Under the pieces are notes generated by a model, which worked only from the letters and a program-made list of their open reading frames with translations, was not told the origin of the DNA and searched no databases. From IMG/VR virus record IMGVR_UViG_2579778919_000008: a stretch of DNA of 33,208 bases; one strand, given 5' to 3'. Source of the DNA: a virus. Its lineage: Duplodnaviria > Heunggongvirae > Uroviricota > Caudoviricetes. Below are positions 1-32,979 of this stretch, piece after piece. Within the stretch, counting starts at the first letter, position 1. Every line of letters begins with the position of its first letter. The translations under genes were made by a program, and so were the position numbers.

Positions 1-645
1 TTGACGAAGAGCTTCGCTGACATTAAAAATCTCAATCCACAAAAGGTTCGTTTAGAAAGAATCCAGCAAACAGCCAATGACACAGCAATTTTCTCACCCG
101 ACAAATCGAAATATATTTTCGTCGGGAATGATGGCTGGGGGGCATTTGTTCAGGGGGGCGGGAGACTGGCGTTATCAGTAGAGGGGGGAGGAACAGGGGC
201 CGGAACGCCAGAGAAGGCACGCGATAACTTGGGTATTACAACCCTGCTTGATGGCAAACAGACTAAAGATAATACCCTGACGAATCTCAGCGGAAAAACC
301 GTCAGTCAGCTACTGGATTATCTGGGCGTTGGATATACCTGTACAGGGGTTAACACTCCTGAAATGATTTACACCCTGCCGGGAGGGGTGAAAATACAGA
401 TTTTCACTCGTTCACTTGGGCATTCTCAGTCTGAAGGCGTGATAACCACTACTCCATTGACATTCCCCCAGGCGTTTCCAGGTGGCGTCTGGGGTGTATT
501 CGCATCGAAAAAAACATTCGTACAGGTTGCCACATCATGCGAAGTGTGGACCCGAACGGGATTTAACGCCATTACCGCGAAACTGGCAAATACATCGTCT
601 CCGGAAACAACATCAGAAACCGTATTTATCGCTATAGGATGGTAA
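1..645 (+). CDS. Alternative tail-fibre distal (receptor-binding) segment S'v, 5'-partial
   Basis: ORF open to the window edge; translation carries a GGTG...EKARDNLG tail-fibre shaft motif homologous to the S protein and ends in ...IAIGW; followed by a Tfa-type chaperone. Confidence 0.6.
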   Translation: MTKSFADIKNLNPQKVRLERIQQTANDTAIFSPDKSKYIFVGNDGWGAFVQGGGRLALSVEGGGTGAGTPEKARDNLGITTLLDGKQTKDNTLTNLSGKTVSQLLDYLGVGYTCTGVNTPEMIYTLPGGVKIQIFTRSLGHSQSEGVITTTPLTFPQAFPGGVWGVFASKKTFVQVATSCEVWTRTGFNAITAKLANTSSPETTSETVFIAIGW

Positions 646-1088
646 AAATGAATTACGCATTCAGCCCAACAGAAAATACTTTTTATTGTTACGACTGGAA
701 ATCTGATTTTGATGCTGCCGGAACATGGCCGGCAGATGCAGTTGATATCAGCGATGAGGTTTATCTTGAATATTCCGGGAATCCGCCAGTGGGTAAAACA
801 CGAGTTGCCGGAGATGACGGATTGCCCGAATGGGCAGATATTCCTCCTCTTACAAAAGAGGATTTAATTGCCGCCACCGAATACGAGCGCCAGCGACGAA
901 TAGATGTCGCCAACGATTTTATGAACAGCAAACAATGGCCCGGTAAGGCGGCAATTGGTCGGCTGAAAGGTGACGAACTGACGCAGTACAACTTGTGGCT
1001 GGATTATCTGGATGCACTGGAAGCGGTAGACACCTCCAGTGCGCCGGATATCAAATGGCCTACGCCTCCGGGAGAACAGGCCAGTTAA
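639..1088 (+). CDS. Tail fibre assembly chaperone U' (Tfa family)
   Basis: 149 aa; C-terminal region ...LTQYNLWLDYLDALEAVDTSSAPDIKWPTPP matches the conserved Tfa C-terminal pattern; start overlaps the S'v stop. Confidence 0.7.
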   Translation: MVKMNYAFSPTENTFYCYDWKSDFDAAGTWPADAVDISDEVYLEYSGNPPVGKTRVAGDDGLPEWADIPPLTKEDLIAATEYERQRRIDVANDFMNSKQWPGKAAIGRLKGDELTQYNLWLDYLDALEAVDTSSAPDIKWPTPPGEQAS

Positions 1089-1458
1089 CATGTTCAGGGT
1101 CGGTTGTCACGTCAGCCGACTTAACCTCATTTTTATAGGCCAGCCACGCCGACAATTTAGCCTTGTTGACGTCGCTGATTTCACCCAACATCAATTCCGT
1201 GCGCCAGTCCTGCATAACAGCGTCAGCATGGGCCAGTAGTTGCCGGCGCTCATTTTCAGCAGCCTGTATAAGCTCTTCACGTGATTTTTGTGGAAGTGGT
1301 GGTGGATTAAATGCTTTACCATCATATCGCCATCCAATGCTGACCATGCCATCCGTTAAAATAGCGATGCCTGCATCGGGCTTCCATGTGGATTTTCCAT
1401 CCCACACGACAACATTGATGACCATACCATCTTCAACAACTGCATAAATTTGTGTCAT
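1060..1458 (-). CDS. Tail fibre assembly chaperone U (Tfa family)
   Basis: Start taken at internal Met ([11 protein letters not shown]...), whose ATG overlaps the S stop codon as TAATG; C-terminus ...DWRTELMLGEISDVNKAKLSAWLAYKNEV...VNWPVLPEA is Tfa-like. The 3' end overlaps U' convergently. Confidence 0.7.
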   Translation of the reverse strand: MTQIYAVVEDGMVINVVVWDGKSTWKPDAGIAILTDGMVSIGWRYDGKAFNPPPLPQKSREELIQAAENERRQLLAHADAVMQDWRTELMLGEISDVNKAKLSAWLAYKNEVKSADVTTDPEHVNWPVLPEA

Positions 1459-2606
1459 TACGCGTACTCCCACACAATAACAATACCTGCCATACCTGCT
1501 CCGCCAGCGCGTTGTTGTGTTGCGCCGCCATACATGCACGCACCACTTCCGCCACCTCCAGGACCATTGGCATTGATTCCCTCGCCAACAATAGCCTGCG
1601 CACCTGCGCCAGCACCCAGCACTGAACTGCCTCCGGGACCGCCTATAGCTAAAGAACCGGAAATCCTGAAACCTGGTGAACTGTATCCACAACCGCTGCC
1701 GTAAATATTTGCGCCAGTGAAACCAGGCACGAAATATGACCCATAAGGCCCCACAATGCCTAGCGATGTACCCTCCGAGAGAAGGTTTCCTCCCAGCCCG
1801 CCCAGAGCAACAATATCTGCTCCGAATGAGGTAGCGCCGCCATGTTGGCCAACAGCCGCACTTGTACCAATACCACCCGCGCCGATAGTGACAGTGGTCG
1901 CTACAGGATTATCAACGCGCGCCTTGACATATTCACCTGACATCCCACCGCCGCCGCAAGCCGCATTACTGTTTGTTCCGACCTGGCATCCACCACCGGC
2001 CCCGCCGCCACCAACCATCTCGACAATTGAAAATGTCGTACCAGGTGTTGGGGTGTAGGTTCCTGACGTTTTGAAAACCTGGCATTTCACCAGGCGACCA
2101 GTGCCATCACCGAGTCCAAGGTTTTTAAGGGATTCAGCCTTGTTCCTGCCTCCTGTACCTCCGCGACTCACAGGAAGCGGAATAACCTCACCAGACTCGA
2201 CGACCTCCGCTCCCCATTGCCCGTTTTCACGGATTACCAGACAATTTTTTTTGACAGGATCGTATACAACCGTCTGCCCATTAGTGGTGGGATTGATGAT
2301 GTCGTATAAACGAAGATTTTCGAGAGCCGTTTTCACGGTGCCATCCGATTTGATATCGCCAAACGGATTTGAGCGACTCAGTAACAGCGCTTTTAATGCT
2401 GTTAATAACTGGTTTTGTTTAGAAGGATCAACATTAATACCGGCAGCGTTCAGGACAGTAATAAGCTCCGACTGCGCATCTCTGACAGCTCCCTGCACGT
2501 TATTCAGATGCTCAGCATCAACAATGGTCCCCAGCTCACCTGTGAGCGGATTACCATCATGGAAAAGATTATCCGGCGTCTGCACCGGTGGCATTAAGGG
2601 CCGCAT
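1458..2606 (-). CDS. Tail fibre protein S (constant N-terminus plus glycine-rich distal domain)
   Basis: 382 aa; position after baseplate genes; shaft motif [22 protein letters not shown]; long Gly-rich C-terminal half; immediately followed by a Tfa chaperone. Confidence 0.75.
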
Positions 2607-3178
2607 TATTCATTCTCCTGATATGCGAAGTAGCAAAATGTATGGGCTGGTTTGAGATCACGGAAGACGTCTTCAATAATCGGATCACCAAACGTTGTCA
2701 GGCGCTCACCTGCAGCTGAACTGCCTGAGCGAAAGCGATAGGATTGAGTTCCTGAGTTCTGAATATTGACGCGCCAGACCCAGATAATGTCTTCAACCCA
2801 GAGGCGATCACCGGCGCGGCCAACTCCCGCCCTGAAAGGTTGCGGTTCATCAATTGTGATGATGTAGCCAAGGTTGCTTGCCAACTGAGTAAAGTACGGA
2901 ATACTGAGACCACCGACTTCAGCCAGTTTAGCCAGTACACGCTGCTGGCGTTGCTGGTATGTCGCACCTTCAGCAGGAGTAAGGTCCAGGACGCGTTCCC
3001 AGTCATACAAAAGGCTGCGTGCATAAAATGGAGTAACTCCACCTTCAACAAGCCCTGCAGACGCATCGAGAGTCTCAAAAACACCTGATTCAGATCGCAA
3101 TGATGCATCAAGCAGAGGCTGGCCCGGGCTGTACGAAACAAGTGGCAGCAGACGATTTAACAGCGTGAAGTAGCTCAT
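2606..3178 (-). CDS. Baseplate/tail protein, Mu gp48-like (P2 gpI-like)
   Basis: 190 aa ORF between the baseplate J-like gene and the tail fibre gene, with start/stop overlaps to both neighbours; assignment by synteny and recollection. Confidence 0.6.
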
Positions 3179-4242
3179 AGCAGCTCTACCTCAACGTTTC
3201 CTAATCTGAGCCATTCGACTTTCGTGGCATCGATTATCGGTTGAATATTTGCCGATGGTGTAACGATGTCATAGTCGGTAATACCCGGAATTAGAGAAAT
3301 CAATGTCCCCGCCTGGCTGCGAATAAAAGCCACTCCAGGCTCTCGGCGCGAGTCATCGTCCTCCAGCGTTCCGGCGACAGCCTGTTTGGCTGCTGCGAGG
3401 GTGATGCCCTCCAGTGATACCTTCACGAGGACGTCAAATGTACGGATGACAGGCATGAGCACCAGCGTGTTTTTTGCTGTAACAGGCCGGACATCGTCAA
3501 TGTGAGCCTGCACCCTGTCGATCACATCCTGAGATGGCAGCCCACCTGTAGACGTGATCACAACATCAACGGTACCCGGCCCCCGCCGCAAAGGGTAAAC
3601 ATATGCGGCGGATACGCCTGATACCTCAAGCGCCCAGCGTTTGTAATCATATTTATTGCCGCCTGCAGGAGGTCGGCGGATGATTTCAAGCAGACGAGCA
3701 AGCAGCTCTGCATCCGTTTCCTCATCTGTTCCGCCAGTCATCAGGCCTACTGTCACTGTGCTGTCAAACCCATCAGGTGTTGTGGTCAGTGTGGCCGATG
3801 TGACGGAAGTGGTGTTACCAGTGGTTCCGGCCAGAGAAGATACTGCGTTTACCGATGATTTTCCATCTGACCCGACAATAATATCTTCGGTTGTTGTCCA
3901 CGAAACACTGTCGCGTTTGAACACAAGACCGGCAGCGGCCACCGCTCCTGGTTCGCCGGTAAACGTGGCAGGCCCGGAGGCGCTATTGGCTGCTTTTTTG
4001 CTTAAACCACGTAAACGGGCGTGCAGATAGAGGAATTCCGAATCAGCAGTATCCGGAAAGATCTGACGGACTATCCATCCCTGATTCTGATAAAGCCCCT
4101 CGGCAACACTGGCTACACTCGATGCCCGGATGTACCAGTCGCTGTCCGGGCCCAGCGTATCATCTGACAACTGCAGGAGATTTTTGATATCCCGCAGAAT
4201 GTCAGTGCGTATTTGCGCGGCATTTTTGGTAATGAATGGCAT
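3175..4242 (-). CDS. Baseplate J-like protein (Mu gp47-like)
   Basis: 355 aa; position and size; N-terminus MPFITKNAAQIRTDILRDIK typical of baseplate J family by recollection. Confidence 0.7.
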   Translation of the reverse strand: MPFITKNAAQIRTDILRDIKNLLQLSDDTLGPDSDWYIRASSVASVAEGLYQNQGWIVRQIFPDTADSEFLYLHARLRGLSKKAANSASGPATFTGEPGAVAAAGLVFKRDSVSWTTTEDIIVGSDGKSSVNAVSSLAGTTGNTTSVTSATLTTTPDGFDSTVTVGLMTGGTDEETDAELLARLLEIIRRPPAGGNKYDYKRWALEVSGVSAAYVYPLRRGPGTVDVVITSTGGLPSQDVIDRVQAHIDDVRPVTAKNTLVLMPVIRTFDVLVKVSLEGITLAAAKQAVAGTLEDDDSRREPGVAFIRSQAGTLISLIPGITDYDIVTPSANIQPIIDATKVEWLRLGNVEVELL

Positions 4243-4592
4243 CAGCTGACCTTAACCGGATATTTCCAGGTCTGCGGCGTTCCGCTCGCAGACGTGACGG
4301 TGATATGAAGCAGCATCCAGCCTTTTTGCCAGTGCTCTGCAGTAACGGAAATGGACTGGGCGCGACCGTCGTCAATAATCGGTTGCAGGGCCTGCCGCGA
4401 ATACTGCACTGCGAGTTGTTGAACGCGAGACACATCCTTTTCGCGGCGGAGTGTATGCAAAAGAGAGCCCAGAGTTGGATCAGCCCACCATGAGCCAAGG
4501 GGCGTCATCAGCCGTAAGTAGACGGCATTCGCTAAAGAGTCTGAGCTGTCGCCGGTATAATCGCCGGTCGTTGGATCAATCAACATTTCCAT
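4242..4592 (-). CDS. Small baseplate protein (Mu gp46-like, gpW/gp25-type)
   Basis: 116 aa ORF preceding baseplate J; 1-nt stop/start overlap (TGATG) with the downstream gene; first gene after the only sizeable intergenic gap in the tail module. Confidence 0.6.
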   Translation of the reverse strand: MEMLIDPTTGDYTGDSSDSLANAVYLRLMTPLGSWWADPTLGSLLHTLRREKDVSRVQQLAVQYSRQALQPIIDDGRAQSISVTAEHWQKGWMLLHITVTSASGTPQTWKYPVKVS

Positions 4593-4627
4593 GCCGTAAT
4601 ACTACCGGCATGGAAATTTAAATTATC

Positions 4628-4645
4628 GGTGAAGGGGTTCAGTGG
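4628..4645 (-). promoter_or_regulatory. Copy of conserved 18-bp motif (plus strand GGTGAAGGGGTTCAGTGG), candidate late-promoter activator site upstream of the gp46-like gene
   Basis: Identical 18-mer also at 24630..24647 upstream of lys and 16/18 match at 16473..16490 upstream of I; on the transcribed strand it is followed directly by GATAAT. Confidence 0.45.
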
Positions 4646-4681
4646 GTATTGCTTTTGAAGGAGAACTTACGTTACCACAAA

Positions 4682-5287
4682 TTACATTTGCTGATTAGGT
4701 TTCTGCGTTGTGCCTGCATCACCGCCGTGGTCGTGGTCGTGACCGTCATAAGTTTCACGCATGGTGTTCAGCGTAGAATTGCCGTCAGCGACTTCATTAC
4801 TGCCTTTCAGCAATGGTGTATCAAAATCTGCCCGCTCTGAGGCTGTGGTTTTATACGTTTTGGTATTAACAATATGTTGTTCGGTATTCACCGTGTGCTT
4901 TTTAGTATTAACGATATATTCATCGCAGTTTACTTCAATTATTTTTCCGCGCTTCAGAATAATGTTGCTTCCTTCAGCCGAATAAATGGCAAGCTCACCA
5001 CTTTTCAGGCTCTTTAGCCTGTATGCAGCGTGTTCCGTGGCAATCACCACGCTATGACTGGTGCGCCCGTTAAGCGGGAGCACAATGGCTTTAGTCCCCC
5101 TGGGCGGGTTGGATGTAAAACCGTACTGCTGAAACATCTCCACATCCTGCAGAGACTCAGTGGCCAGACCTTTACCCTGAATGGTCTGAATATCACCGCC
5201 GCTGTTAACCCTTATTAAAACGCCCCTGAAGGCCTTTCTGATACGGTTTAACGCCGTGTTAATACGAGAGTCAATTTTGTTCCACAT
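4682..5287 (-). CDS. Baseplate central spike / assembly protein V-like (Mu gp45-like)
   Basis: 201 aa; position between P-like and gp46-like genes; C-terminal repeats (YIVNTKKHTVNTEQHIVNTKTY) and His/Asp-rich tip DGHDHDHGGD. Confidence 0.65.
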   Translation of the reverse strand: MWNKIDSRINTALNRIRKAFRGVLIRVNSGGDIQTIQGKGLATESLQDVEMFQQYGFTSNPPRGTKAIVLPLNGRTSHSVVIATEHAAYRLKSLKSGELAIYSAEGSNIILKRGKIIEVNCDEYIVNTKKHTVNTEQHIVNTKTYKTTASERADFDTPLLKGSNEVADGNSTLNTMRETYDGHDHDHGGDAGTTQKPNQQM

Positions 5288-6488
5288 CGATAATCTCCAG
5301 CTCTTTATTTACTTTGGCGCGACGCTTACGTGATTTGCGTTTTTTCGGATAAGCATCCGGTATCCATATTCCATCCTCTTTGAGCCGCAGGGTGGTAATG
5401 GTGTTGTCTGGACGACCACCTGAAAACTCTCTTCCCATGAGGAAGTAAATGTCATCAATGCCATGCGGCTCGCTTCGGACACGAATACGCTGGCCCGGTT
5501 GCCATAACTGACCGTTCTCCATGCGATGGCCTTTAACAATTACTGTCAGATCAAACCCGTTCAGACGGGCGTCAGCCATGGCCTTTCTCGCGCGATAATC
5601 AACCTGCGCCTGATTATCAGCATCACCAGCAACCATAATCTGCGGACGATAGAAAGGTACGGTACTGTCGCGAACGGTACTACGTAAGCCATGAAAGCCA
5701 TTCTCTGCAGAGCCGGTGCTGTCATAAATTGCGTCGGCATCATCATCGTCTTCAGCCTCAGCGCTCTGATCATCAACGTCAATAACTTCCAGTCTTCCTG
5801 ACTTTTTCCCCTGGCCGTGTCCCTGTGCCAGCATTGTCAGTTCAGAGAACGCACCGGTAATGGATGACCGGTCACTGAGATCGAGGACATTATTTCCCCG
5901 ACCGTCACGATTCAGAACAAGCGTGGCTACAGGGTCTTTTGTGTAATCCGGCCCTCCAATTACCAGCGTGCCATCTGGCTCAAACCATGGCCATAACCCG
6001 CGTGCAGCAGCTGCACGCTCAAGGGTATCCCACGCACGTTCTCCGGGCTCCACGCTGACCTTGTCATTACGCAGGGATGATTCAGCCTCGATGCGGATGT
6101 TCGTTATCCCCAGCGGTCTGACAACCTGGGCGATCACCTCTTCAAGACTGAGCTGGCGGGAGGTAAAAACGGGTGAAGCGCAGTCAACAAGCACGGCTGC
6201 ACCATCGCGACCGGAAAGAGATAAAGAAACCTGCTGACGGGATACCCGGCGCTGAACCACATCCACCCGACCGGACATGACAACATCATTACCCACCCTG
6301 ACCAGCACCGGCACACCACGTTTAATGGCCGGAGGGAAAATACCATCAGGCAGCCCAAGCGTTACGCTCCATGCATCGGCGGGGATTAGAAAGTCGGAGT
6401 CAATCTGATAGCGGCTCCATGCACTATGGATTTTGCCATCAATAACAAGGCTCACTGTATTCTGCGAATTTTTATCTTGAGTAGGCAT
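5271..6488 (-). CDS. Tail/baseplate protein P (Mu gp44-like, P2 gpD-like)
   Basis: 405 aa ORF between N-like and spike genes; overlapping start/stop with both neighbours. Confidence 0.65.
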   Translation of the reverse strand: MPTQDKNSQNTVSLVIDGKIHSAWSRYQIDSDFLIPADAWSVTLGLPDGIFPPAIKRGVPVLVRVGNDVVMSGRVDVVQRRVSRQQVSLSLSGRDGAAVLVDCASPVFTSRQLSLEEVIAQVVRPLGITNIRIEAESSLRNDKVSVEPGERAWDTLERAAAARGLWPWFEPDGTLVIGGPDYTKDPVATLVLNRDGRGNNVLDLSDRSSITGAFSELTMLAQGHGQGKKSGRLEVIDVDDQSAEAEDDDDADAIYDSTGSAENGFHGLRSTVRDSTVPFYRPQIMVAGDADNQAQVDYRARKAMADARLNGFDLTVIVKGHRMENGQLWQPGQRIRVRSEPHGIDDIYFLMGREFSGGRPDNTITTLRLKEDGIWIPDAYPKKRKSRKRRAKVNKELEIIDVEQN

Positions 6489-7803
6489 TCAGAACGTCAC
6501 CGGCTTTGATATTGTTAGGATTACGTAGTGTCGGATTGAGACGCAGCAACTCGGCGGCGCGCGTGTAGTCCTCATACCACAGGTGGGCCAGCAAATGCAG
6601 GTTAGTGTCGGACAATACCACTCGCGTAGTCAGTGGTGGTCTGCTGGTAATAACCGCTGCGCCCAGCTCCTGAACGGTCAGGGCGATATCCTTGAGACCT
6701 TCAACCACGGGTTGCCAGGTCACGCCACCAGGTGTTTCACCGGCACTCAGGTTTTGCGTATCAGCAGCAAAGGTGTCCCGCGTCTGGTCGATTGCCTCCT
6801 GAATGGCCGTCCTGGTGTCGTTGGTGATCTGCTCAATATCAACGGGAGACAGAATATCGCTGATGCTGCTGTCACTGAGTATGTCGGAAGCATCAAGTGC
6901 CAGCTGGATTGCAACCTGAGTTTTTACCGCCGTTACCAGCTCGGTAATATCCGAGGTTGATGAGCCTGCCGGAATGGCAACAGCAACCGTTTTTTGCCCG
7001 GTCACTATCTGCTGAGGTAATGCGGCCACATCCTGCAGATTGTTACGGCCATTCTTCCAGTCGGCCATCACGATGCCTGCTGTGCCGGAAACGTCTGAGG
7101 ACTGTGAATAGCTTCCTGGATTATTACTGACACTTGATTTGGACTGAAACGACGTCAGACTCAGCGCACTCTGCAGGTCATTCATGAACGATTTTGGGTA
7201 ATTAACAAAATCCGAGGTGGTACTGACAAATCCCGTCAGTTCCCCCTTAAGCACGGTCACCATATTCAGCGTCGTGGTTGCCAGCGATTTCGCTTTTTTC
7301 ATCCACTTTTTCGCTGTACGCAGAGGCGAGAGAATATTGTCGATGGCCGTCTGGGCTTTCTCCAGAGCGGATTGCGCCTGGTTGAAAACGATATCAGCTT
7401 TCGACAGCGGGAAATCGCTGCCAAAGAAAGGCAGATTAAGTCCCCCCTGGATAAAGACCACTTCGACAACGCAGTAATCAACGTTCTCCGCTTCATGCGA
7501 TGCCTGATACTCAATGCACTGCATGCCCGTCATGGAGCCGAAAACGGGATGAATTAATTCTGCGCTACCGCGAGTATCCAGTGCGGCCAGAAACGCCTGC
7601 AGCCGCACATCATAATCATCACCCCAGAAAAGGACTGTCATCCGCAGGTTACGAGGCTTGCGGCCAAGATCATCAACATCACCACCGTCGACATAGGGAT
7701 ACTCATACGTCGCAATGTCGCGACTGGCGCTGTCACGGGTATTAACCACATCAAAGCGGACGCCCCTGAATGAGGCATCCTGTAATGAATCTTCCCAGCT
7801 CAC
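6472..7803 (-). CDS. DNA circularisation protein N-like (Mu gp43-like)
   Basis: 443 aa immediately downstream of the tape measure gene with ATGA overlap; N-terminus MSWEDSLQDASFRGVRFDV consistent with Mu N family by recollection. Confidence 0.7.
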   Translation of the reverse strand: MSWEDSLQDASFRGVRFDVVNTRDSASRDIATYEYPYVDGGDVDDLGRKPRNLRMTVLFWGDDYDVRLQAFLAALDTRGSAELIHPVFGSMTGMQCIEYQASHEAENVDYCVVEVVFIQGGLNLPFFGSDFPLSKADIVFNQAQSALEKAQTAIDNILSPLRTAKKWMKKAKSLATTTLNMVTVLKGELTGFVSTTSDFVNYPKSFMNDLQSALSLTSFQSKSSVSNNPGSYSQSSDVSGTAGIVMADWKNGRNNLQDVAALPQQIVTGQKTVAVAIPAGSSTSDITELVTAVKTQVAIQLALDASDILSDSSISDILSPVDIEQITNDTRTAIQEAIDQTRDTFAADTQNLSAGETPGGVTWQPVVEGLKDIALTVQELGAAVITSRPPLTTRVVLSDTNLHLLAHLWYEDYTRAAELLRLNPTLRNPNNIKAGDVLNAYSR

Positions 7804-24648: not shown

Positions 24649-25155
24649 TTATTGAGTAACATCAATTATCTCTACATCGTCACTTTCTTCAATATGCGAG
24701 GGAGGTGGGTTGTTAATTGCAAATTTACATTCCTTACCCTGTTTTATGTATGATTCACCCTGCGCATTCACAGTCTTAACATTATCAGTTTTTAATGAAG
24801 ATAGCCTTGCCATCCAATATGAGTAAGCAGTTGCTGGTAACGTAGCACAAGAGCTAAAAGGTGTAGGGTTTAAAAGAAGATTCTCCCCATACAATTTTTT
24901 CGCATCCTCATCAAGGAGGAGGAAATGACGACTCACTGCAACAACTTCAGGTGTAAGATATCCTAGGTTCTTGTACATATCAAAAACAGCAGTTGCACCC
25001 ATTAAAGTGCTCTGCGTTTCATTAAATATTCTTTTGGTTTCCTCAAGTTGATTTTTATAAGTTTCAACTGCTTTTGTATTGGGTACTGTTTTTGCTACTG
25101 CAGTAGTACTAAATACCACCAAGAAAAATGCCATATATCTCATTGCATTACACAT
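24649..25155 (-). CDS. AT-rich moron encoding a secreted/periplasmic protein of unknown function
   Basis: 168 aa with N-terminal signal peptide (FFLVVFSTTAVA-KT); markedly lower GC than flanking phage genes; start overlaps the mor stop (TAATG). Confidence 0.55.
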   Translation of the reverse strand: MCNAMRYMAFFLVVFSTTAVAKTVPNTKAVETYKNQLEETKRIFNETQSTLMGATAVFDMYKNLGYLTPEVVAVSRHFLLLDEDAKKLYGENLLLNPTPFSSCATLPATAYSYWMARLSSLKTDNVKTVNAQGESYIKQGKECKFAINNPPPSHIEESDDVEIIDVTQ

Positions 25156-29982: not shown

Positions 29983-30876
29983 TTAATGGATCAGCATTTC
30001 GGCTATCTGATTGACGATATGACCGCTGACCGGAACATCATTCATTGCACTGGTACGAACTGCACCGCGCAGTAGCTTGAACAGTCGGCGGGCATTACCT
30101 TTTGATGCGTTGAACAGCGCTTTGCTCAGGTCTTCATTCAGGCCATCCGGGAGAACGCTGCTGGCGATGACGTCAATATCAGCACCCGGCAGGCTATGCC
30201 CGAGGTTGAGGGCGAAACCGACACGGCTATAGAGCTGTACGAGCTCACCGCGTTTGCCCTTGAGGTTCAGAATCAGGCGAGGCATACCAACCAGGACGAT
30301 GCCGATCCCCGTTTTGTCATGAATGCGGCGGATAGATTCCAGCGCACGCAGAGGGAGGTTCTCAGCTTCATCAATAATCAGCACGCGCCCAGAGTCGCGC
30401 AGCTTGTTGATGCAGGCTTCGCTAAGTTCATGCATATTGCCGCGGGTACTGAGCCCCAGCAGGTTGCAGAGTTCTTCCAGGATTACGCGTGCGGTGTAGC
30501 CAGGGTCGGCCTCAATCAGCAACGCATCCCGGTATTTAGAGACGTAGGCTTTGCAAATCATCGTCTTGCCCAGACCGGCTTCGCCGTAAAGCACGTTGAT
30601 ATCACCTTCGACGTGCGCCATGCGTATAACATCAACGGCTTTGCGCGTTGTTGGGGTATCAACAAATTTGACGCTGATACGTGCCGAGCGCTCTTTTTCA
30701 TGCTGACGATCGATAAAGCTACGAATATCGTTTTCCAGCGATGCAATATCGCCGTCGTATTTATTATTCAGGTACTGGCTGATTACGGCAGAGCTCTTAC
30801 CAATAGCGCGGGCGACCTGCGTCTGGTTAAGACCTTTTGCTTTCATCAGTTCGACAAGTTCATTTTTAGCTGACAT
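29983..30876 (-). CDS. B: Transposition ATPase B (MuB-like AAA+ protein)
   Basis: 297 aa; N-terminal HTH-like segment and Walker A GEAGLGKT; directly downstream of the transposase with GAGGAAG RBS. Confidence 0.85.
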   Translation of the reverse strand: MSAKNELVELMKAKGLNQTQVARAIGKSSAVISQYLNNKYDGDIASLENDIRSFIDRQHEKERSARISVKFVDTPTTRKAVDVIRMAHVEGDINVLYGEAGLGKTMICKAYVSKYRDALLIEADPGYTARVILEELCNLLGLSTRGNMHELSEACINKLRDSGRVLIIDEAENLPLRALESIRRIHDKTGIGIVLVGMPRLILNLKGKRGELVQLYSRVGFALNLGHSLPGADIDVIASSVLPDGLNEDLSKALFNASKGNARRLFKLLRGAVRTSAMNDVPVSGHIVNQIAEMLIH

Positions 30877-30921: not shown

Positions 30922-32979
30922 TCAGAAGGCCGCTTTTTTATTGCCCTGACTTTTCAGCCACTCTTCTCGCTCTGACTCGAACAGGAACACGTGTTCCCGG
31001 TCATCATTAATACGCTCGGCATCTGATGGTATTAATGCGCCGAAATCAGGGTACATATCGCTTTCTGGCAGCAGTCCTCGCGCCTCTGCTTCAATCTCTT
31101 CTCGCTGTTCGTCAATGCGCTTCAGACGACGTTGGCGGCGTTTCTCAACGGCGATATCCATCATGCTGGTTGGCAGCGCGGCACGCTTGTTGCCGTTCCA
31201 GATGGCGGTGCAGACATAAGTACCGTCCATACGGCGAACGATGACGGCGGCAGGGTCGTGAATGTCATAGGCAACACGAACCTCTTCACCATCGACCTGT
31301 ATCAGGTCAGCGCTGAAATACTGGTTGTTCATCAGGTCAATCCAGCCTCTCTGGGCCGTACGGCACATTTCCGGCATGAAGGCTTCACGAAGTTCGATAT
31401 CCGTCAGATATTCAATCTCGTCCCCCTCAGTGGCCAGGACCTCGCGACGGTACTGTGCTGGCGTCATATGAACACCATTACGCTTCGGTAACTCGCTGTG
31501 CTCATGCAGGTTGTTGTATTTGTCGACTTCCTCGGCAATGGTATCCAGCAGCATCTGCCATGACGGCAGTTTACGCAGCGCATTACGCTGTACGCTCGTG
31601 AGCTCGCGGCCATTCTCCTGAGCCTTAATCGCTGACTGGATGGCGCGACCGGTCATCCGGACATGCTCACGGTCGGCCCCGAATCCGTTGTAAGTATCAA
31701 ATTTGTTGGCGATCGCTCTCGGTATTACGGCGTTCAGGCGTTCGATAATCCCGCGAGACTGAGGTCGGCCAGGAATACTGGTCGGGTGATCAATCCCCAT
31801 GCGGGTGAAAATACCGGTGATATCAGCATCCAGCGTTTTGTTCGTTTCGCCGCCACCGTTATCCGAATAAACAAAAAGAGGTTTCCCGTGGAATTTCATG
31901 GCGTAGCGATAGGCATCCGCTACGGCGATGACGTTCTCCGAGAGCGCCAGGCTCCAGCCCACCAGGAAGCGGGTTCGTCCATCAATCACCAGCGTCAGTT
32001 CGGGCGTGAATGGGCGACCATGGACCGGATGAGCAACTTTCATATCCAGCGATTTACCATCCGCAATCCAGCAACCATTTACGGGCATCTGTGACCAGTC
32101 ACGTTTCTGGTAAACCTCAAAGGCCAGAGCCGCTGAACCGCTGATACGGCCGCGAGCGCGTTCACGTTTGGGCAATTTTTCCATCGCACGGCGAACGGCA
32201 TCATAAGACGGACAGACGGCGAGCATCGCTGGCTGTCCCGCATAAATAGCCTGCCATTCAGTCTTGAATGAACGCCACGCATCCACCAGGGAAGGGCCTG
32301 AGAGTTTCCGCCAGTGGGCGAGAAAATCAGGGAGCCACTTAATCTGTTCAGGCTTACGCGCTTTAAGATGGCCAGGGGCCAGTAAAGCAAGACGTTCGAT
32401 ACCTGGACGGGTTGAAAGGTAAACAGACAACCATTCCTGGAGTGTTCTTTCACCCACGCCACGGCGGCTGGAGCCTTTACGGGCATTCGCAATATCAGCC
32501 GCAGCCTGGATGTTCTCCGGCAGCGAACCCTTGCGCGACTCTTTGGCGATGAACTCAACCGCCGATGCGCGAGACATACCGATATCCCGAAGGCGCTCAA
32601 CCTCTGCGGCTAATAATGCACGCGCATCGGCGATCTGTTTCTGGCGTTCGGTAAGGTCGGAAACTTCACGCTCCAGCAATACCGGGCACTGCCGTAATAA
32701 CGCCAGCTCATCACGGGTCGTGGTGACTTCCCGCTTTGGTGCCGTTGGAGCAACTGAACAATCAGACTGTTTCAACACCTCGCGATAATGCCGGGCTTTG
32801 ACTATTTCACGCGCCTGTTCAGGCAGGCAGTCGATGTGGTACTCGAATGCTTTGCTGCCAGCACGTTTGCGAACCAGTTCAGGGGAGTTGCCTGCACTTT
32901 TTTTAAGGCTGTATCGCAGTCCTTGTTGTGTTGTTGGCAATCCAGGGACGCCAACTAATTCGTTAACAGTCACGAACAT
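30922..32979 (-). CDS. A: DDE transposase A (MuA-like)
   Basis: 685 aa; N-terminal DNA-binding domains and central catalytic core typical of MuA; start 2 nt after the ner stop. Confidence 0.9.
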   Translation of the reverse strand: MFVTVNELVGVPGLPTTQQGLRYSLKKSAGNSPELVRKRAGSKAFEYHIDCLPEQAREIVKARHYREVLKQSDCSVAPTAPKREVTTTRDELALLRQCPVLLEREVSDLTERQKQIADARALLAAEVERLRDIGMSRASAVEFIAKESRKGSLPENIQAAADIANARKGSSRRGVGERTLQEWLSVYLSTRPGIERLALLAPGHLKARKPEQIKWLPDFLAHWRKLSGPSLVDAWRSFKTEWQAIYAGQPAMLAVCPSYDAVRRAMEKLPKRERARGRISGSAALAFEVYQKRDWSQMPVNGCWIADGKSLDMKVAHPVHGRPFTPELTLVIDGRTRFLVGWSLALSENVIAVADAYRYAMKFHGKPLFVYSDNGGGETNKTLDADITGIFTRMGIDHPTSIPGRPQSRGIIERLNAVIPRAIANKFDTYNGFGADREHVRMTGRAIQSAIKAQENGRELTSVQRNALRKLPSWQMLLDTIAEEVDKYNNLHEHSELPKRNGVHMTPAQYRREVLATEGDEIEYLTDIELREAFMPEMCRTAQRGWIDLMNNQYFSADLIQVDGEEVRVAYDIHDPAAVIVRRMDGTYVCTAIWNGNKRAALPTSMMDIAVEKRRQRRLKRIDEQREEIEAEARGLLPESDMYPDFGALIPSDAERINDDREHVFLFESEREEWLKSQGNKKAAF

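Follow-up and report, generated by a model that had tools for sequence, protein, structure and literature searches.

A glycine-rich tip of predicted Pam3 gp24-type fold in the putatively invertible tail fibre of a Mu-like Escherichia coli prophage

Here, we analyze the glycine-rich C-terminal region of the tail fibre protein S, encoded by a Mu-like prophage that occupies a 33,208-nucleotide stretch of DNA (IMG/VR record IMGVR_UViG_2579778919_000008; this whole stretch is "the window", and positions are counted from its first letter). We find that residues 165-382 of S very probably make up the distal tip that recognises the host, in a short trimeric tail fibre of the Mu type. A structural model makes us confident that this tip would adopt the fold of gp24 of phage Pam3: a TNF-like beta-sandwich joined to a lattice of glycine-rich motifs. 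The tip and its neighbouring chaperone gene appear to form one arm of a Gin-type invertible segment, S/U-U'/S'v, with the glycine-rich tip in the expressed orientation in the window. The tip is real but ordinary, in that it comes from a known and widespread family of phage fibre tips.

Fold and family of the S tip

A first-pass annotation of this DNA, made from the letters alone, had singled out the last ~200 residues of S as a long, glycine-rich, low-complexity domain encoded by GC-rich DNA. The region is real. Residues 183-382, encoded together with the stop codon by positions 1458-2060, are 29% glycine, 12% alanine and 8% serine; residues 1-182 are 11% glycine. The tracts quoted in support of the claim are present (GGGGAGGG at residues 199-206, GGPGGSS at 322-328 and GPGGGGSG at 348-355), as is the C-terminus IVIVWEYA. 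The GC content is indeed raised, but only modestly (56.6%, versus 53.1% in the window and 49.1% in the 5' part of S), and is raised because glycine is encoded by GGN and alanine by GCN codons. "Low-complexity" describes the composition but little else: glycine positions are highly conserved across 83 homologues, and an AlphaFold2 (AF2) model of residues 165-382 has a mean predicted local distance difference test score (pLDDT) of 95.3 and a predicted template modelling score (pTM) of 0.91, so the picture of an unstructured tract is not borne out. The range first proposed for the domain lies inside the module, whose true boundary is about 18 residues further upstream: the Pfam match starts at residue 181, while the swapped module and its first beta-strands start near residue 165, at window position 2114.

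A glycine content this high, in places as short glycine runs, might also be expected of a disordered low-complexity linker or of a sequencing or assembly artefact, the latter a possibility that the first-pass annotation itself had raised. We consider this explanation extremely improbable. Positions 1-8606 agree with an independent assembly (L001) at 99.9% identity with no gaps, no tandem DNA repeat was found in the glycine-rich region, thousands of proteins keep the glycine positions, and the confident model matches a solved structure. The glycine codons of the region are mixed (GGT 22, GGC 20, GGA 11, GGG 5). On the plus strand, open reading frames (ORFs) at 1450-1704 (84 amino acids) and 1756-2058 (100 amino acids) encode Pro/Ala/Thr-rich sequences; these antisense ORFs mirror the Gly/Ala codons of S and are not genes.

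The fibre-tip assignment rests first on family membership. Pfam PF21722 (Gly_rich_2) matches S residues 181-378 with 33.8 bits against a gathering threshold of 24.3, covering profile positions 3-223 of 226, and both hallmarks of the family are found: GGGGxGG-type motifs in the first and last loops, and a hydrophobic strand that closes the protein. PHROG families annotated as tail fibre also match the glycine-rich part of S; neither S nor U matched NCBIfam. An exhaustive HMMER search recovered 3877 cluster representatives (50% clusters) of this family type at E<=1e-3, and in nearly all of the 150 representatives listed the Gly_rich_2 domain is C-terminal, behind N-terminal parts of very varied length.

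The second line of evidence is structural. In Pam3 gp24, the strands of a TNF-like beta-sandwich extend into 12 glycine-rich motifs that form a four-layer, hydrogen-bonded lattice (PMC9608196, PMC9942802). A single-sequence search of the PDB matches this protein weakly but end to end (E=0.84), and an hmmsearch with the profile of the 83 homologues reaches E=1e-12, aligning profile positions 41-277 with chain positions 61-282 and thus both sub-domains. The tip model shares its three-dimensional fold with the Pam3 gp24-type tip. About 12 conserved glycine clusters can be counted in the tip's sequence, to which DSSP assigns neither helix nor strand, and the last strand, IVIVWEY, lies confidently within the beta-sandwich (pLDDT about 98). 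In BFVD, 231 viral proteins match the model at E<=1e-3, including named tail fibres of the cultured phages Goslar, FoX6, eiMSLS and Mano; Foldseek on the tip model gave matches in the same order. The first-pass annotation had considered that the region might turn out to match a common, characterised fibre domain, and with PF21722 and Pam3 gp24 that is essentially what we find.

The likeness to Pam3 extends beyond the fold. Pam3 gp24 (7YPX, 7YFW), with its chaperone gp25, has the same GGGGxGG motifs in its first and last loops and the same C-terminal hydrophobic strand, and Pam3 shares with our prophage a simple Mu-like baseplate and a separate chaperone gene directly downstream of the fibre gene. 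The two differ in how the tip is carried and where: Pam3 gp24 has a long helical bundle with disulfide anchoring, where S has a Mu S-type constant part (Sc) and a collar; the host of Pam3 is a cyanobacterium rather than E. coli; and the S tip lies within an apparently invertible segment. Other solved proteins are more distant. The ectodomains of ALK and LTK (7LIR, 7LS0, 7NX0) combine TNF-like and glycine-rich parts in metazoan cytokine receptors, a likeness in fold only; Pfam PF12810, the ALK/LTK glycine-rich domain, gave no match on S, which is not a member of that family. The S16/T2-type gp38 adhesin (6F45) is built on the same concept as S, with hypervariable loops for receptor binding held in place by conserved glycine-rich motifs (Dunne et al. 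2018, as relayed in the Pam3 papers). A gp38-type adhesin (Pfam GP38; 6F45; a separate monomeric adhesin) was also tried as an assignment for the tip and rejected, as the tip does not qualify as a member.

Many NCBI records (homologues P0007-P0100; H47 in NZ_LR536431.1) name homologues of the tip "carbohydrate kinase", and records in the same cluster are also named "glycine-rich domain-containing protein" or "tail fiber protein". Taken at face value, the first of these names would make S an enzyme, a reading to which we give next to no credence: neither Pfam nor NCBIfam yields a kinase family match at E<=1, the fold matches fibre tips, and the gene is always in the tail-fibre position. The kinase label looks like a propagated mis-annotation. 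A literature search found nothing on PF21722, nor on glycine-rich domains shared by phages and ALK.

Close relatives of the tip are sparse. In complete E. coli genomes, megablast with the region gave no match, and a sensitive blastn search found tip homologues in 27 of 5426 such genomes at 68-70% nucleotide identity, none reaching 85%. Among 50,697 phage records, tblastn found no match to the tip, in a search whose low-complexity filter may mask distant relatives, and with full-length S it returned matches limited to residues 1-179; close relatives in cultured phages are therefore absent. A single-protein scan of viral contigs gave 12 close loci.

A conserved scaffold, a swapped module and a cognate chaperone

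Conservation within the tip follows the glycines. In the 83-homologue alignment, 4 columns are invariant and about 30 more are nearly so; almost all of these hold glycine, and entropy is high between them. Against the nearest common E. coli tip, S is 79% identical in amino acids and 68% in nucleotides: none of 62 glycines is changed, 47 of the 156 other residues are, and 143 of 218 third codon positions differ. This pattern points to an old divergence under long purifying selection. Amino acid substitutions favour columns that vary across the family (Mann-Whitney p=0.003). The glycines are thus the conserved structural scaffold of the tip, and the hairpin ends and inter-motif inserts, at approximately residues 207-217, 274-320 and 356-367, are likely its receptor contacts.

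Four cysteines of S (Cys175, 207, 217 and 357, at window positions ~2082-2084, 1986-1988, 1956-1958 and 1536-1538) are conserved in the tip's E. coli subfamily, and Cys207 and Cys217 bracket the first hairpin tip of the module. This pair might staple a receptor-binding loop. A fifth cysteine, Cys305, is found in S of this prophage specifically and not across the subfamily.

The suggestion that the tip was acquired by domain swapping is well supported. At a single junction, NLGLGDG(S/T)GRL, versions of this tip with 77-82% identity sit behind at least four unrelated shafts; besides that of S these include a 316-amino-acid fibre of SfV-like prophages and fibres of 454 and 597 amino acids, each with its own unrelated N-terminus. 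Conversely, among sister prophages whose baseplate J protein is near-identical (same 90% cluster), some have a single Gp53-like_C tip and others a Gly_rich_2 tip different from this one. The PF21722 proteins of E. coli and Shigella prophages resemble S in their tip (78-82% amino-acid identity), in chaperone type and in their position after a gp48-like gene. The common E. coli version differs in being 316 amino acids long and fixed, in SfV-like prophages, with ~68% nucleotide identity; S has in addition a collar of ~65 residues and a candidate gix site, and is probably invertible. The collar is missing from the 316-amino-acid homologue, in which ALENL runs directly into GLGDG (BLASTP against S of locus L002). 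In S the NLGLGDG junction motif recurs at the end of the collar, and a segment similar to the collar is present in S'v.

The tip appears to travel with its own chaperone gene, U, whose ATG start overlaps the S stop codon (TAATG). The C-terminal Caudo_TAP domain of U, a helical domain that other fibre chaperones also have, matches Mu U (5yvq_B, E=0.003), and the N-terminal module of U, ~55 residues long, is tied to the tip: a hidden Markov model (HMM) of this module hits, in 18 of 18 Gly_rich_2 loci, the ORF directly downstream of the tip, and gives a hit in none of 8 loci that lack such a tip. A homologue search with the module returned a single match. A profile built from five of its sequences found nothing meaningful in the PDB, including no Pam3 gp25, to which U has no sequence-detectable similarity. 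From this linkage we infer that U acts as the dedicated assembly chaperone of the glycine-rich tip, and tip and chaperone together look to be one cassette, exchanged between phages at the NLGLGDG junction. Following a distant Gly_rich_2 tip, the N-terminal module also occurs as a stand-alone ORF of 60 amino acids that lacks Caudo_TAP (7737-7919 in L011; 7788-7970 in L012). U, on the minus strand, and U', on the plus strand, are convergent, and their 3' ends overlap by 29 nucleotides (window 1060-1088).

A putative Gin-type invertible segment and its surroundings

The arrangement of S, U, U' and S'v follows that of the Mu G segment (S/U, S'/U', Gin): a constant Sc followed by two inverted cassettes of tip and chaperone, a crossover site within S, and, as seen in assembly L001, an invertase gene beside the segment. 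Downstream of Sc the two cassettes face opposite ways, S/U being encoded on the minus and U'/S'v on the plus strand. A pattern search for the 14-nucleotide crossover core found 3 matches in the window, where 0.19 would be expected, and two of these, one in S and one at the start of S'v, are the inverted pair listed in Table 1. The third (24871-24884, minus strand) has 2 mismatches and is probably a chance match. In the 99.9% identical assembly L001, a gene for an invertase of the Resolvase family begins ~100 nucleotides past the core at the start of S'v.

Comparison with relatives supports this reading. Three loci (L014, P0002 and P0282) carry the same Sv with other flanks, and the break falls exactly at the S core; in L014 the flank at the junction reads TTTTCCAAAAACC, TT, CGTTTA in succession, and the invertase gene starts on the opposite strand. 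Two further loci, L011 and L012, represent a Mu-like sister prophage that occurs twice in one chromosome (CP096187.1, GCA_023195715.1); its fibre segment faces opposite ways in the two copies. Their S proteins are identical for 130 residues, after which one continues into a Gly_rich_2 tip and the other into a Gp53-like_C tip. The sister prophages' tips match PF21882, and the junction of S'v falls between V and RLERI.

The glycine-rich tip had been described as unlike both its alternative and the fibre tips of Mu, and both comparisons hold. S'v is of the Gp53-like_C type, and Mu S structures (5YVQ and 8JU3, in their N-terminal region) match S at residues 44-104 only in a PDB sequence search; Sv and S'v of Mu are unlike both tips here. 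The first 16 codons of the ORF listed at 1-645, including its TTG start, fall outside the invertible segment and do not belong to S'v. U' resembles U in the C-terminal half only, with 26% identity.

Table 1. Features of the S locus and other identified genes in the window
Feature	Positions	Strand	Description and basis
S	1458..2606	minus	Tail fibre ORF, 382 amino acids
Sc, constant part of S (residues 1-98)	2313..2606	minus	Predicted attachment to baseplate; basis: Mu S match, L011 identity, gp48-like neighbour
Candidate gix core in S, AAAATCTTCGTTTA	2307..2320	minus	Codons E96-L100; pattern search; pair found by inverted-repeat search
Collar (S residues 99-163, ~65 residues)	2118..2312	minus	RLYDIINP...; between crossover site and tip
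Tip module (S residues 165-382)	1461..2114	minus	Predicted TNF-like beta-sandwich and glycine-rich lattice; Pfam PF21722 Gly_rich_2
U	1060..1458	minus	Putative tail-fibre assembly chaperone, 132 amino acids; Caudo_TAP 2e-18; phrog_14370 on residues 1-55
U N-terminal module (~55 amino acids)	1294-1458	minus	phrog_14370; tip-specific
U'	639..1088	plus	Putative chaperone of alternative tip; Caudo_TAP 3.4e-30
S'v	49..645	plus	Silent alternative tip cassette, Gp53-like_C type; Pfam PF21882 20.8 bits, below cut-off
Partner gix core, start of S'v, AAAAGGTTCGTTTA	41..54	plus	Inverted orientation
Transposase A	30922-32979	minus	Identified gene
B	29983-30876	minus	Identified gene
Portal, protease/scaffold, major head, sheath, tape measure			Further identified genes

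The prophage has its genes on the minus strand and a baseplate of the Mu gp44-48 type. The window's proteins are identical to records of Escherichia coli SCD1, in which S is ESA29120.1, "Prophage tail fiber protein". S comes after Mu gp47/gp48-like baseplate genes and before a Caudo_TAP chaperone gene, an order shared with E. coli SfV-like prophages. Its residues 1-87 are 66% identical to S of the sister prophage L011, and a scan of species-representative genomes found relatives of the N-terminal Sc only. PHROG tail-fibre families also match S at residues 90-194 and 107-167. In L001 (9262-10866), the end of the prophage just past the invertase gene adjoins a bcsG ORF of 534 amino acids, compared with 559 in the cluster representative; the prophage may have inserted, in Mu fashion, into this cellulose-synthesis gene.

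Host recognition, alternative roles and implications

We propose the following model for fibre function in this prophage. Sc (residues 1-98) would anchor a short trimeric fibre to the baseplate, with the collar next. The glycine motifs of the tip would pack through main-chain hydrogen bonds into a layered lattice, and the combined TNF-like and glycine scaffold would display variable loops to a host surface receptor. During assembly, the N-terminal module of U may bind the tip while its helical Caudo_TAP domain drives trimerisation. Finally, Gin-type inversion would swap tip and chaperone for S'v and U', and thereby alter host range.

That this is a receptor-binding tip had already been suggested in the first-pass annotation, and work on related fibres supports the idea. 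In Pam3, which has a Mu-like baseplate, gp24 is described as a conserved glycine stem with a variable distal tip that is proposed to recognise the receptor (PMC9608196, PMC9942802), and in a Klebsiella phage fibre that recognises lipopolysaccharide, host-range mutations map to this tip domain (PMC12671077). For S itself, we infer the trimeric state, receptor binding by the variable loops and the identity of the receptor from these relatives.

Several points weigh against the assignment of S residues 165-382 as a host-recognising tip in an invertible fibre. The tip structure is a monomer prediction, and the count of ~12 glycine motifs comes from its sequence. Receptor binding by the Pam3-type domain itself is a proposal rather than a mapped activity. 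The 18 of 18 chaperone linkages come mostly from close relatives, and five of these sequences were used to build the HMM. Likewise, the window does not extend to the invertase gene, which L001 alone shows, and no record matched exactly the 296-amino-acid fibre S' predicted for the inverted state; inversion of this particular segment is therefore deduced from relatives found in both orientations (L014; L011 and L012).

Two other roles for the region deserve consideration. The first is that of a "brush", making generic, low-specificity contact with the cell envelope or triggering ejection rather than determining host specificity, as suggested for the tail-tip brush domains of mycobacteriophages. 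The Bxb1 brush proteins gp33 and gp29 (PDB 9D93) are siphovirus tail-tip appendages, unlike the myovirus side fibre S, and share 18-24% identity with the S tip without a sequence-level match. We regard a brush role as unlikely: the tip is one of two alternatives in what appears to be an invertible host-range switch, its variable segments diverge while the scaffold stays fixed, and the nearest relative of known structure is the tip of a fibre rather than an appendage of the hub.

The second is that of a self-cleaving intramolecular chaperone, a C-terminal pro-domain removed after the fibre has folded, which the first-pass annotation had offered as an alternative to receptor binding. Beyond the C-terminal position and unusual composition of the region nothing speaks for such a role, and we judge it highly improbable. 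Pfam shows no match to Peptidase_S74 or another chaperone domain at E<=1, and the terminal strand is an integral part of the predicted sandwich. Moreover, the structure of the fibre in intact Pam3 virions (7YFW) still includes the homologous C-terminus, and the locus already encodes a separate Tfa-type chaperone, U, directly after S.

A host-recognising fibre tip of the Pam3 gp24 type remains the reading we favour. Beyond it, we can only speculate that the tip and the ~55-residue module of its chaperone constitute a self-contained, portable receptor-binding cassette, and that the E. coli branch of such a cassette might bind a receptor as yet unassigned in coliphages; we hold this to be rather doubtful.

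The value of these findings is mostly practical, and they raise no new question of principle. They give a tip that E. coli and Shigella records often call "carbohydrate kinase" or "hypothetical protein" its proper name, with Pam3 gp24 as structural template. They also identify the module boundary at NLGLGDG and the cognate chaperone, both of which are required for grafting the tip onto another phage or a tailocin. For the family, the S locus adds an E. coli case in which a polyglycine-type tip would serve as one arm of an invertible host-range switch.
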